IMG/VR virus record: IMGVR_UViG_2728369393_000012
Source: a virus
Taxonomy: Duplodnaviria > Heunggongvirae > Uroviricota > Caudoviricetes
Strand: one strand, 5' to 3'
DNA length: 21,819 nucleotides
The notes under the pieces were generated by a model. That model saw nothing but the letters and a program-made list of their open reading frames with translations, did not search any database and had not been told where the DNA came from. This document shows positions 11,051-16,076 of the stretch, piece after piece (position 1 is the first letter of the stretch; the number at the start of each line of letters is the position of its first letter). Made by a program: the position numbers and the translations under genes.

Positions 11051-11712
11051 GCGCCTTCTCCCTGTACCTGAATCAATGTGAGGTTTCCGCAGAACACTGC
11101 GCCAGTATCGATATACATCTGGTTGGCAAATTTGAGTGGTTTCACTGCTGGCGTATGACCAAAGATGAACGTGTCCGCGCCTTTGATTTCTTTCACGATC
11201 CCGTCTTGTGAGTTGCTGATTCGTTCGCGGTTCCAGATTACCTGCTGATGATCAACTGGCTTTCCAAACTCGTATTTATCACAAGGATAATCGGCGTGGC
11301 AGATGACATATTTTTTTCCTTTACTCACCAGTTCGATGATTAACGGAAGTTCATCTGCTTTATGGGCAAGAGCTTTAGCCAGAATTTCTTTGTCGTAATC
11401 GAGATTAAAGAACCAGCCACCGCCATTAAGCAGCCAGTGATTGACGTTTCCACGCTCTGATAAGCCATCAATCATCATTTGCTCATGGTTTCCACGTACA
11501 GCTCTGAACCAGGGGAATGTGATTAATTCCAGGCATTCTACGTTCTCTGTACCGCGATCAACCAAATCGCCCACCGAGATAAGCAGGTCTTTTTTGGTGT
11601 CGAATCCTATCGTCTCCAGTTTTTTCATCAGGTTCGTGTAGCATCCGTGCAGATCGCCAGCTACCCAAATATTTCGGTATTTGCTGCCATCAATTCTTTC
11701 GTAGATATTCAT
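11047..11712 (-). CDS. ninI: Ser/Thr protein phosphatase NinI (lambda PPase, ORF221)
   Basis: GDLHG, GDLVDRG and GNHE metallophosphatase motifs; near-identical to lambda Nin221 as recalled. Confidence 0.9.
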
Positions 11713-11849
11713 GCAACCTCACTTCTGCTATTTCGCAGGTCTTTGAGTTTCTGTTGGTACTCTGCCTTGATCGCCTTGCACTCTTCGACAGTCCAGCGAT
11801 AGCGGTTATGGTTTGATTCGATTTCGTCTACTGCTTCCTGCCCGATTCG
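11709..11849 (-). pseudogene. ninG: ninG (rap) 3' fragment, last about 45 codons only, no start codon
   Basis: Reads ...[46 protein letters not shown], matching the lambda NinG C-terminus; the upstream frame is closed by a stop and unrelated sequence. Confidence 0.75.
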
Positions 11850-11855
11850 GTTAAC

Positions 11856-12047
11856 GATGAAACCATGCAGGAGATTAACACTCTGCTGATTGCCCTGGAT
11901 AAAACATGGGATGACGACTTATTGCCGCTCTGTTCCCAAATATTTCGCCGCGACATTCGCGCATCGTCAGAACTGACACAGGCCGAAGCAGTGAAAGCTC
12001 TTGGATTACTGAAACAGAAAGCCACTGAGCAGAAGGTGGCAGCATGA
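11856..12047 (+). pseudogene. bet: bet (Red-beta) 3' fragment, last about 63 codons, diverging from the ninG fragment at a deletion junction
   Basis: ...[64 protein letters not shown] matches the lambda Bet C-terminus; the stop overlaps the exo ATG. Confidence 0.8.
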
Positions 12048-12724
12048 CACCGGACATTATCCTGCAGCGTACCGGGATCGACGTGAGAGCTGTCGAACAG
12101 GGGGATGATGCATGGCACAAATTACGGCTCGGCGTCATCACCGCTTCAGAAGTTCACAACGTGATAGCAAAGCCCCGCTCAGGAAAGAAGTGGCCTGACA
12201 TGAAAATGTCCTACTTCCACACCCTGCTGGCTGAGGTTTGCACCGGTGTGGCTCCGGAAGTTAATGCTAAGGCGCTGGCCTGGGGAAAACAGTACGAGAA
12301 CGACGCCAGAACCCTGTTTGAATTCACTTCCGGCGTGAATGTTACTAAATCCCCGATCATCTATCGCGACGAAAGTATGCGCACCGCCTGCTCTCCCGAT
12401 GGTTTATGCAGTGACGGCAACGGCCTTGAACTGAAATGCCCGTTTACCTCCCGGGATTTCATGAAGTTCCGGCTCGGTGGTTTCGAGGCCATAAAATCGG
12501 CTTACATGGCCCAGGTGCAGTACAGCATGTGGGTGACGCGAAAAGATGCCTGGTACTTTGCCAACTATGACCCGCGTATGAAGCGTGAAGGCCTGCATTA
12601 TGTCGTGATTGAGCGGAATGAAAAGTACATGGCGAATTTTGACGAGATGGTGCCGGAGTTCATCGAAAAAATGGACGTGGCACTGGCTGAAATTGGTTTT
12701 GTATTTGGGGAGCAATGGCGATGA
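12044..12724 (+). CDS. exo: Lambda exonuclease (Red-alpha), 226 aa, intact
   Basis: Near-identical to lambda Exo as recalled. Confidence 0.9.
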
Positions 12725-12882
12725 AGCATCCTCACGATAATATCCGGGTAGGCGCGATCACTTTCATCTACTCCGTTACAAAGCGAGGCTGGGTATTTCC
12801 CGGCCTTTCTGTTATCAGAAATCCACTGAAAGCACAGCGGCTGGCTGAGGCGATAAATAATAAACGGGGGCTGTATGACTGA
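12721..12882 (+). CDS. Small phage protein (53 aa), probably lambda orf60a-like
   Basis: Unlisted [27 protein letters not shown]...; ATGA overlap with exo; its stop overlaps the next ATG. Confidence 0.5.
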
Positions 12883-13432
12883 TTTCACCGGAAGCAATAC
12901 TCCTGCCGAACATCGCGACAGCTGGCGCACACCACCAGAGATTTTTGCTGCGCTTAATGCAGAGTTCGTTTTTCAACTTGATGCTGCCGCCAGCGAAAAA
13001 AACCGACTATGTCGGCTTTTTATCTCACAGGAGCAGAACACATTAACCACTTCATGGCCTGAAGCAATGGGATATGCCTCTGGTTATGTCTGGTTGAATC
13101 CACCATACAGCAATATTTCCCCTTTTGTGAAAAAGGCAGCCACTGAAAACAAATTCAGTAGTGTGGGATGTGTAATGTTATTGCCTGCTGACACATCTGT
13201 CGGATGGTTTCATGAAGCGATACAAACCGCCAGTGAGGTCAGATTCATCACAGCAGGACGACTGGCATTTATTAACCCACTCACTGAGAAACCCGTCAGT
13301 GGAAATAATAAAGGCTCGATGCTCATTATCTGGCACCCATACCCCCGTACACACTGCCACTTTACGACCGTTGATCGTGGAGAGTTGATGGCGTTCGGCT
13401 CAAGGATTCTTGCCCGTCGGGAGGCTGCATGA
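12875..13432 (+). CDS. Phage orphan DNA N6-adenine methyltransferase (Dam-like, NPPY motif), 185 aa
   Basis: Catalytic LNPPYS motif; translationally coupled within the exo operon; no restriction-enzyme partner nearby. Confidence 0.7.
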   Translation: MTDFTGSNTPAEHRDSWRTPPEIFAALNAEFVFQLDAAASEKNRLCRLFISQEQNTLTTSWPEAMGYASGYVWLNPPYSNISPFVKKAATENKFSSVGCVMLLPADTSVGWFHEAIQTASEVRFITAGRLAFINPLTEKPVSGNNKGSMLIIWHPYPRTHCHFTTVDRGELMAFGSRILARREAA

Positions 13433-13512
13433 CAACCACGGAATGCATTTTTCTGGCAGCGGGCTTCATATTCTGTGTGCTTATGCTTGCCGACATGGGA
13501 CTTGTTCAATGA
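13429..13512 (+). CDS. Small hydrophobic peptide (27 aa, MTTTECIFLAAGFIFCVLMLADMGLVQ)
   Basis: ATGA overlaps at both ends tie it into the operon; single predicted TM helix. Confidence 0.35.
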   Translation: MTTTECIFLAAGFIFCVLMLADMGLVQ

Positions 13513-13724
13513 CACCTCAGCAGGAAAACGCCCTTCGCAGCATTGCCCGTCAGGCTAATTCTGAAATCAAAAAAGCCAGACAGCAGTTTCCGGATAAAAA
13601 CGTCGATGACATTTGCCGTAGCGTACTGAAGAAGCACCGCGAAACGGTAACGCTGATGGGATTCACACCGACTCACTTAAGTCTGGCAATCGGTATGTTA
13701 AACGGCGTCTTTAAGGAACGGTGA
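13509..13724 (+). CDS. Hypothetical small phage protein (71 aa from MTPQQENALR...)
   Basis: The listed ORF 13410..13724 overlaps the methyltransferase; the coupled ATG at 13509 is the likelier start. Confidence 0.5.
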   Translation: MTPQQENALRSIARQANSEIKKARQQFPDKNVDDICRSVLKKHRETVTLMGFTPTHLSLAIGMLNGVFKER

Positions 13725-13746
13725 ACATGAAAAGCAAAATCATCAG

Positions 13747-13768
13747 GGAGCCACAGGCTCCTTTTTTA
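13747..13768 (+). terminator. Hairpin terminator (GGAGCC-ACAG-GGCTCC-TTTTTT)
   Basis: Perfect 6-bp GC-rich stem plus T6 immediately after the preceding ORF. Confidence 0.6.
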
Positions 13769-13822
13769 TTATTCGCATTCACCCTCAAGCGTATTAACCA
13801 ACAATTCAGGGATTAATGAAAG

Positions 13823-14044
13823 ATGGCGGACATCATTGATTCAGCATCAGAAATTGAAGAATTACAGCGCAATACAGCAATAAAAATGCGTCGTCTGAAC
13901 TACCAGACTATATCCGCCACTCATTGTTGTGAGTGTGGCGATCCCATAGATGAACGAAGACGCCTGGTCGTTCAGGGTTGTCGGACTTGTGCAAGTTGCC
14001 AGGAAGATCTGGAGCTTATCAGTAAACAGAGAGGTTCGAAGTGA
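13823..14044 (+). CDS. TraR/DksA-family C4 zinc-finger protein (lambda orf73-like), 73 aa
   Basis: CxxC...CxxC motif and acidic N-terminal helix typical of TraR; position equivalent to lambda orf73. Confidence 0.7.
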   Translation: MADIIDSASEIEELQRNTAIKMRRLNYQTISATHCCECGDPIDERRRLVVQGCRTCASCQEDLELISKQRGSK

Positions 14045-14742
14045 GCGAAATTAACTATCAGGCACTACGTGAGATAGCAAAACAGGCAACACAGGGCGAA
14101 TGGGTCGCGTTTATTTCGACGGGTACAGGTACGTATGCTGTGCATACGCCCGGTGATAAACGATGTGAAGATGTTATCAAATGGACCGGCTTTGATGGAC
14201 TGAAAAACGCAGAGAACAACGCTCGTTATGTTGCCGCATTCAACCCAAAGGTTGCACTGGAGCTACTGGGTGAAATTAAGCGCCTGGAGGACACAAATAT
14301 TGATGCTATGTGCCGAATAGCACCGCTTGAGACTAAGCTCGCGGCTCTGGTGGCAGAGAACGCCGGGCTGAAACACGCAATGGCTGTAACTCTTGATCAT
14401 GTGTCGGTCACGGATGCAGGGCAGGCCGGAGTTGCTGCAATGATTATCAACGATGCCCTACACCACAGCGAAACTCCAGCTACCGATGCTTTTCTGGCTG
14501 AAATTCGTGCGGAAGCACGCAACGAGGGGATTAACTATACCGCCAGCCGTCTTGCTGCTGCGTTCAATCACGGATTTATCAATAAGTCTTTGCGTGAAGT
14601 TTTCGACGTTACGCGCATGATTCTGTCAGCGAAAGAAGAGTTGGCTAATGAACCGTACCCGATTGATGGCCTGTCCGGTGAATATGCGGAGAAATCCCTT
14701 GAAGAATGGGCGGAACAGATTCGCAAAGGAGTTCAGTCATGA
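14041..14742 (+). CDS. Hypothetical phage protein (233 aa), possibly Ead/Ea22-like
   Basis: Position equivalent to the lambda ea22 region; GTG start overlapping the upstream stop; family call from memory only. Confidence 0.5.
   Translation: MSEINYQALREIAKQATQGEWVAFISTGTGTYAVHTPGDKRCEDVIKWTGFDGLKNAENNARYVAAFNPKVALELLGEIKRLEDTNIDAMCRIAPLETKLAALVAENAGLKHAMAVTLDHVSVTDAGQAGVAAMIINDALHHSETPATDAFLAEIRAEARNEGINYTASRLAAAFNHGFINKSLREVFDVTRMILSAKEELANEPYPIDGLSGEYAEKSLEEWAEQIRKGVQS

Positions 14743-14908: not shown

Positions 14909-16076
<1,168 letters not shown>

Follow-up and report, generated by a model that had tools for sequence, protein, structure and literature searches.

The window analysed here is a stretch of 21,819 nucleotides from a virus of the Caudoviricetes (IMG/VR record IMGVR_UViG_2728369393_000012), and our subject is a pair of adjoining genes at positions 12875-13512: a DNA methyltransferase gene and, directly behind it, a 27-codon open reading frame (ORF) that we call pep27. 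Both lie in the exo-xis block of a lambda-like prophage that has decayed, a variant allele of the corresponding block of phage lambda. We read the methyltransferase as an ordinary allele of a known phage family and pep27 as a functional membrane peptide of the lambda backbone that would feed ribosomes to the next gene, orf61, and give this combined reading a probability of roughly 0.6. pep27 evolves like a real gene for a small membrane protein, with an intact ORF and purifying selection specific to its own frame. A 27-residue hydrophobic peptide had already been described in an earlier note on this DNA, which gave both its sequence and its coordinates correctly. The methyltransferase itself adds nothing new: its phage family is well populated, and this further allele sits in a promoter-less remnant of a prophage.

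Conservation of pep27 and selection on its frame

A translated search found pep27 in 176 phage records, and the peptide is 100% identical in 138 of these, including lambda, 933W and VT2-Sakai; the lambda copy lies at 30925-31008 of J02459 (stop codon included, minus strand). The earlier note called the peptide unannotated, which holds for the lambda (NC_001416/J02459), 933W and Stx2-86 records and for the E. coli genomes annotated by the Prokaryotic Genome Annotation Pipeline (PGAP) that we inspected, but not for the protein databases, where the exact 27-amino acid (aa) sequence is an entry of NCBI nr/UniProt named "hypothetical/uncharacterized protein" (A0A0A2SGE8_ECOLX; 981 contigs). It matches no family in the Pfam, NCBIfam and PHROGs libraries, its sequence string did not occur in the literature searched, and a review of the exo-xis block (PMC8614690) mentions neither the pep27 ORF nor the methyltransferase allele. 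The peptide is strongly hydrophobic (grand average of hydropathicity, GRAVY, 1.62; best 19-residue window averaging 2.33), and its charged residues are E5 and D22, with no basic residue. As an observation aside, a pair of 428-aa proteins (P0097 and P0098), both from assemblies in Logan and ENA, cluster at 90% identity with the peptide and may be gene-calling fusions.

Since the orf61 family is confined to Escherichia and nearly invariant, selection was assessed at the level of population variation. We collected 269 loci through an anchor inside orf61, so that the sampling was blind to the peptide; they come from IMG/VR, metagenomes and annotated records. pep27 is intact and without internal stops in 267 of them, so that it passes the check on conservation in relatives that the earlier note had proposed; the exceptions are one indel and one change of Q27 to a stop that makes the peptide one residue shorter. 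Of the 19 variant alleles, 7 are non-synonymous (T3A, E5K, I7T, F8L, C16Y, V26I and Q27*); the 12 synonymous ones all fall at codon position 3. With synonymous sites making up 23.5% of the frame, this corresponds to a binomial P of 2.6e-4 and a ratio of non-synonymous to synonymous rates (dN/dS) of ~0.18. A 27-codon open frame alone is not unusual, as by our own estimate chance leaves about a quarter of such stretches open; it is in its behaviour in relatives that pep27 goes beyond chance.

This signal is specific to the frame. Before the metagenome scan, 16 variant alleles were known; scored on these, the frame of a proposed orf61 extension has 3 synonymous and 13 non-synonymous changes, and the antisense frame with the same third positions as pep27 has 6 and 7; the pep27 frame scores best among those tested, and the others look neutral. 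Within the overlap with the 93-aa form of orf61 alone, the counts are 7/3 in the peptide frame and 2/8 in the extension frame. Elsewhere in the block, synonymous and non-synonymous changes number 13/17 in orf61, 6/13 in a 31-codon ORF behind it and 43/46 in orf73. We rejected an antisense gene as the cause of the third-position periodicity in view of the 6/7 score and of its ORF running into allele-specific sequence.

Protein searches for distant orf61 homologues gave Escherichia sequences only. Apparent homologues at 51-52% identity (P0069 and P0075) proved to be frameshift-ridden assemblies, and another candidate (P0036) is a copy disrupted by an insertion sequence (IS). Scanning one genome per species mainly brought up lambda DNA within unrelated assemblies; the other hits were from Escherichia sp. 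and E. albertii. In this context, loci L094-L107 include lambda-type copies in assemblies that bear names such as Shewanella, Pseudomonas, Bradyrhizobium, Paenibacillus and Kitasatospora; their 214-nt match fits the A7 frameshift of lambda described below, several sit on contigs of ~48.4-48.5 kb, and they look like lambda DNA contamination.

Gene junctions and the start of orf61

The coordinates below, like the junctions, were taken directly from the window sequence and its ORF list:
11865-12047, plus strand: 3' remnant of bet, a recombination protein gene (ORF list; partial Bet called by PGAP in strain 2014C-3011)
12044-12724, plus strand: exo, lambda exonuclease, 226 aa (Pfam YqaJ, E 6.9e-30; exonuclease annotation in relatives)
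12721-12882, plus strand: orf60a homologue, DUF1317 (Pfam DUF1317, E 5e-32; PGAP start at the ATGA overlap with exo)
12875-13432, plus strand: orphan phage N6-adenine DNA methyltransferase, 185 aa, by profile matches (PF05869, TIGR01712, phrog_111)
13429-13512, plus strand: pep27, 27-codon ORF (MTTTECIFLAAGFIFCVLMLADMGLVQ), predicted single hydrophobic helix (ATGA overlap at each end)
13509-13724, plus strand: orf61 homologue, 71-aa form (phrog_303; PGAP calls the 71-aa form)
13721-13816, plus strand: 31-codon ORF with a GTG start here and ATG in lambda (ORF list)
13745-13773, plus strand: intrinsic-terminator-like hairpin AGGGAGCC-ACA-GGCTCCTT with T-run in the gap between orf61 and orf73 (terminator scan)
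13823-14044, plus strand: orf73 homologue, TraR/DksA zinc-finger protein, 73 aa (Pfam zf-dskA_traR, E 8e-9)
14041-14742, plus strand: ea22-like gene, 233-aa ORF (Pfam Ead_Ea22, E 1e-25)

Most of these genes are chained by four-nucleotide overlaps. The sequence ATGA joins the bet remnant to exo (exo ATG at 12044), exo to orf60a (12721-12724, with an alternative ATG at 12715), the methyltransferase gene to pep27 (13429-13432) and pep27 to the 71-aa orf61 (13509-13512), while GTGA joins orf61 to the 31-codon ORF (13721-13724; ATGA in lambda) and orf73 to the ea22-like gene (14041-14044). The chain of ATGA or TGATG overlaps that the earlier note drew from exo to the 71-aa ORF is therefore real and correctly placed, except that orf60a and the methyltransferase gene share the 8-nt overlap ATGACTGA (12875-12882) instead of one of 4 or 5 nt; the chain also runs past the note's list through the two GTGA junctions. 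The terminator-like hairpin falls inside the 31-codon ORF and is also kept in lambda and 933W.

The overlap in front of pep27 is not a property of the methyltransferase, as the earlier note had it. The same ATGA connects orf63 to pep27 in lambda, as it does in the majority of the Stx phages and E. coli prophage loci that we examined, and it is retained with two unrelated upstream genes, orf63 and the methyltransferase gene. In Enterobacter-type prophages, DUF1382 (the orf63 product) directly abuts a 30-aa ORF via ATGA, and pep27 and orf61 are both missing. By these gene arrangements, pep27 and orf61 appear to form one two-gene cassette with pep27 first, and pep27 is to be placed with the conserved lambda backbone, coupled by ATGA to whatever gene lies upstream and without a special link to the methyltransferase. 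A specific methyltransferase-peptide pairing was rejected: pep27 follows orf63 in most loci, and relatives of the methyltransferase gene precede other genes. The downstream backbone is present in 3,134 of 5,426 complete E. coli genomes (~58%), and their alignments to the window start exactly at the pep27 ATG; 244 of the 5,426 carry the full methyltransferase allele.

Existing annotations disagree over the sequence occupied by pep27, with a 61-aa "orf61" in lambda, a 93-aa form and the 71-aa form of PGAP. The lambda "orf61" (30839-31024) starts inside orf63, reads pep27 in another frame and is shortened by an extra A: a run of adenines inside orf61 (window 13560-13575) is A7 in the lambda reference (locus L085) and A6 in the window and 933W, causing a frameshift. 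The lambda protein is thus probably an N-terminally mis-started and C-terminally truncated version of the 71-aa protein. The 93-aa form, whose start is the ATG at window position 13443, is annotated in 933W, Stx2-86 and some RefSeq records and is probably mis-started as well.

Estimated Shine-Dalgarno (SD) strengths differ sharply between these starts. In the methyltransferase allele, pep27 is preceded by GGGAGG, whose pairing energy with the anti-SD, -10.3 kcal/mol, ranks among the best 1.5% for all 398 ATG triplets of the window, whereas both candidate orf61 starts are at background level (-2.6 kcal/mol for ATG 13443 and -3.9 kcal/mol for ATG 13509, against a median of -2.2 kcal/mol for the 398 ATGs). 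An A-to-G variant at 13509 is synonymous in pep27 (Q27) and turns the orf61 ATG into GTG, which is still a start codon. We envisage that ribosomes ending the upstream gene, be it orf63 or the methyltransferase gene, would restart at the overlapping pep27 ATG and that in the methyltransferase allele the strong GGGAGG could also load ribosomes directly. The resulting peptide, predicted as one hydrophobic helix, would insert into the inner membrane, and ribosomes that reach the second ATGA would terminate there and restart on orf61, a gene lacking its own SD. On this evidence pep27 is very probably translated, and it is likely, with rather less confidence, that the peptide itself is functional.

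Many copies of orf61 (13509-13724) are named "cell division protein ZapA" at NCBI. The sole support that we found for this name is a sub-threshold Pfam match (16.1 versus 23.8 bits, residues 3-35), and it is probably unreliable.

The closest comparison for pep27 comes from two other small ORFs of the block. According to the passage on the block in the exo-xis review (PMC8614690), ribosome profiling (Liu et al. 2013) added orf2311 (7 aa) and orf2313 (31 aa). By size and position, the 31-codon ORF at 13721-13816 probably corresponds to orf2313, and in our own reading of the sequence the 7-aa orf2311 matches 13817-13840. Like pep27, these ORFs are very short, lie in the same block and were missed by standard annotation, and a 4-nt overlap links the 31-aa ORF to orf61, as another links pep27 to it; unlike them, pep27 is hidden under the annotated orf61 N-terminus, and its purifying selection (12/7) is clearer than that of the 31-aa ORF among E. 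coli copies (6/13). The 31-aa ORF looks neutral among those copies. A homologous 30-aa ORF (…PFLLLAFT.NRINRQFRE) follows DUF1382 in Enterobacter-type prophages (L232 4742-4834, and L234), and about half of the codon changes between the genera are synonymous as judged by eye.

Alternative readings and the published orf61 deletions

Three other explanations of pep27 have to be weighed against a functional peptide. It might be translated as a mere relay that carries ribosomes to the SD-less orf61, with the peptide degraded and functionless. The gene arrangement invites this idea, given that ATGA stands at both ends of pep27, that its stop overlaps the start of a downstream gene for which neither candidate start has an SD, and that pep27 and orf61 always occur as a pair; likewise, the peptide has no charged anchors and matches no Pfam, NCBIfam or PHROGs family. 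However, a relay would need only an open frame, yet the amino acid sequence is conserved (12 synonymous versus 7 non-synonymous changes) and the frequent variants are all synonymous except for the conservative T3A and F8L, so that we consider a relay without peptide function fairly unlikely.

It is improbable that pep27 is a chance open frame and that the true gene is a 93-aa orf61 which begins at ATG 13443 and overlaps it in another frame. That form is annotated in several phage records, PHROG 303 spans its residues 1-93, and 27-codon open frames are common by chance. Over the overlap, however, the 93-aa frame collects 2-3 synonymous against 8-13 non-synonymous changes, the SD of ATG 13443 (-2.6 kcal/mol) is background, PGAP favours the 71-aa start, and an independent modelling study placed residues 1-23 of the 93-aa Orf61 outside the predicted three-helix fold (PMC8614690). 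The PHROG match probably mirrors an annotation habit shared by closely related phages.

The earlier note had suggested a small membrane toxin, and we regard a type I-like toxin checked by an antisense RNA or by Orf61 as very improbable. Length and hydrophobicity are typical (27 aa, GRAVY 1.62, 19-residue window 2.33), and as a hydrophobic single helix pep27 resembles Hok, Ldr, Ibs, ShoB, DinQ and ZorO; a weak promoter-like site also lies on the opposite strand (13435 to 13406). But the known type I toxins have their own promoter and 5' untranslated region (UTR) and carry positive charges, and pep27 fits neither. It is internal to an operon and linked by overlaps suggestive of translational coupling, the 4-nt overlaps on both sides leave no space for a promoter or structured 5' UTR of its own, it lacks an antisense RNA locus, and it is without basic residues and without any family match in the Pfam, NCBIfam and PHROGs scans. 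The antisense site matches only 9 of 12 positions and lies in the allele-specific 3' end of the methyltransferase gene, so it is absent from most copies.

Several points weigh against pep27 as a functional peptide gene. Small membrane proteins without a lysine or arginine flanking the helix are unusual. All copies share at least ~90% DNA identity and come from Escherichia only, so that the selection test rests on 19 variant alleles. The strong SD is confined to the methyltransferase allele, being moderate in orf63 alleles (-5.1 to -5.6 kcal/mol) and weak in lambda (-3.1 kcal/mol). Finally, pep27 is not among the small ORFs that the exo-xis review, in its passage on the block, gives from lambda ribosome profiling (PMC8614690), although footprints there would be credited to orf61 because the annotated orf61 overlaps pep27.

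The functional reading of pep27 also bears on published genetics. In the lambda Δorf61 mutant of the exo-xis studies, the homology arms end after pep27 codon 12 and at the 3' end of lambda orf61 (primers in Table 2 of PMC4699033), so that the deletion also removes pep27 codons 13-27. Lambda orf61 itself is frameshifted and has been judged likely non-functional (PMC8614690), and lambda Δorf61 shows mild effects on lysogenization and survival (PMC6213356). Since the deletion cuts pep27 while lambda orf61 is likely non-functional, pep27 becomes a candidate contributor to these phenotypes. With slightly less than even confidence, we would go further and propose that an overlooked gene for a 27-residue membrane protein lies between orf63 and orf61 in lambda and ~58% of complete E. 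coli genomes, that the annotated orf61 N-terminus (in the 61-aa lambda form and the 93-aa Stx phage form) is wrong, and that the Δorf61 phenotypes in lysis-lysogeny and induction reflect partly or wholly the loss of pep27, with orf61 of lambda PaPa being frameshifted. If true, this would add a gene to the best-studied phage, correct the start of orf61 in the annotations of lambda and Stx phages, and change how Δorf61 data on the lysis-lysogeny decision and on Shiga toxin (Stx) prophage induction are read. As it stands, pep27 is a likely additional small gene of lambda-like phages next to a probably mis-annotated orf61; its importance is modest, and it illustrates how such short frames can drop out of standard annotation.

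The methyltransferase allele and its prophage

Judged by its profile matches, the methyltransferase belongs to the PF05869/TIGR01712 family of phage N6-adenine DNA methyltransferases and is an ordinary orphan member of it. It scores 190.5 bits against PF05869 "Dam" (cut-off 28.1; residues 6-177 on profile positions 1-168 of 169) and 165.6 bits against the NCBIfam equivalog TIGR01712 "phage N-6-adenine-methyltransferase" (cut-off 97.05), matches PHROG 111 (phrog_111), and an identical protein is already named phage N-6-adenine-methyltransferase in public databases. The NPPY motif (residues 75-78; catalytic motif IV) is invariant as N75-P76-P77-Y78 in 24 homologues of 66-84% identity, as are the acidic D36 and the small residues A38 and A39 of the cofactor-binding strand. 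A confident AlphaFold2 model built on the alignment of these homologues (predicted local distance difference test score, pLDDT, 85.5; predicted template modelling score, pTM, 0.83) has strands alternating with helices in a Rossmann-type fold dependent on S-adenosylmethionine. Its top fold matches in the PDB are the PCIF1/CAPAM N6-adenosine methyltransferase domains (E ~1e-4; TM-score normalized to the query 0.50-0.56), and a sequence search found no close solved relative.

Homologues occur in 2,063 phage records; the enzymes from T1-like phages are 42-45% identical to the present protein, and the nin-region "Dam" encoded by Stx and lambdoid phages is 46.6% identical. Like those PF05869/TIGR01712 enzymes, the present one combines NPPY with a full-length profile match, a size of ~185 aa, the lack of a large target-recognition domain, an orphan state without nuclease partner and a place in an early phage operon; it differs from the nin-region methyltransferases by sitting in the orf63 slot of the exo-xis block. 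The phage T1 enzyme methylates GATC, a target that is not transferable at 42-45% identity. Non-specific prophage methyltransferases of the M.EcoGII type were rejected as closest relatives, as these are 349-aa beta-class enzymes.

No restriction gene lies beside the methyltransferase gene, whose neighbours are exo, DUF1317, pep27, orf61, orf73 and ea22, and the same applies to PhiR30_1, a deposited complete phage genome with this allele. Profile matches and neighbouring genes therefore both agree with the orphan Dam-like enzyme with NPPY that the earlier note described. Prophages of Enterobacter, Klebsiella and E. coli carry relatives of 74-80% identity in the same segment, between the recombination genes and TraR/xis/int, and none of them has an adjoining restriction gene. 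At those of these loci where the next gene directly abuts, its start overlaps the methyltransferase stop, too, but this gene varies between HNH nucleases and unrelated proteins of 72-73 aa.

Alignment with E. coli 55989, Stx2 phage 1717 and PhiR30_1 delimits the swap. Near-identity continues through "...GCTGTATG", the start codon of the swapped gene, and returns at "CATGACAAC", its stop overlapping the pep27 ATG; the slot holds orf63 (DUF1382, 63 aa) in most phages and the methyltransferase gene in the window and PhiR30_1. As judged from these boundaries, the methyltransferase gene is a clean gene-for-gene replacement of lambda orf63 from start to stop codon, and the swap alters the 3' end of orf60a. 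The remainder of the order exo-orf60a-orf63-orf61-orf73-ea22 is complete and >95% identical. Compared to the exo-xis block as it is known in lambda and Stx phages from work of the Wegrzyn and Donaldson laboratories, the gene order is the same and DNA identity exceeds 95% in orf60a, pep27-orf61, the 31-aa ORF and orf73, whereas the window has the methyltransferase in place of orf63 and has lost pL.

This loss results from the decay of the prophage, which lies between ybhB/bio and ybhC at the lambda attachment site and is locally 100% identical to E. coli strain 2014C-3011. To the left of the bet remnant, the opposite strand carries a ninG remnant, a Ser/Thr phosphatase gene and a Q-type antiterminator gene; partial NinG (minus strand) and partial Bet (plus strand) meet head-to-head at ~11850 (window 11709-12047; pseudogene calls of PGAP in strain 2014C-3011). 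This joint is what would be expected of a single ninG-to-bet deletion, which would have taken out nin, P, O, cro, cI, N, pL, pR, cIII, kil and gam and would thus leave the exo operon without its native promoter and antiterminator. A promoter scan upstream of the operon found only a weak 9-of-12 match. In an intact phage, the methyltransferase would be made early from pL and methylate replicating phage DNA, presumably as protection against host restriction. With pL deleted, however, it is probably silent in the present prophage, and the loss of pL, N and the repressor makes a standing epigenetic role in this host doubtful, an epigenetic role being one of two functions raised by the earlier note. 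Overall, the orphan methylase, the overlaps and the conservation of the peptide stand from that interpretation, while coupling specific to the methyltransferase and the epigenetic role do not.

Further observations concern the remainder of the block and the prophage. Lambda Orf73 is an RNA polymerase-binding protein that inhibits rRNA promoters (PMC9239242). The ea22-like gene is followed by IS3-family transposase sequence on the minus strand, and more transposase fragments lie at 14909-15586. The same IS3-family element (a 100-aa helix-turn-helix ORF plus a 272-aa rve ORF) is present three times on the minus strand, at 3222-4378, 4721-5877 and 17916-19072, with two of the copies nearly in tandem, and this IS content is unlike that of the otherwise identical strain 2014C-3011. 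A 512-aa ORF at 6812-8350 (minus strand) combines a short match to a phage lysozyme N-terminus (residues 34-67) with N- and C-terminal domains of a prophage tail fibre and collagen repeats, and it looks like the in-frame joint of a second large deletion in which the morphogenesis genes were lost. At the prophage end, the 217-aa ORF at 981-1634 is annotated in 2014C-3011 as a type III effector ADP-ribosyltransferase of the EspJ family, and its sole Pfam match is a weak one to AvrPphF-ORF-2.

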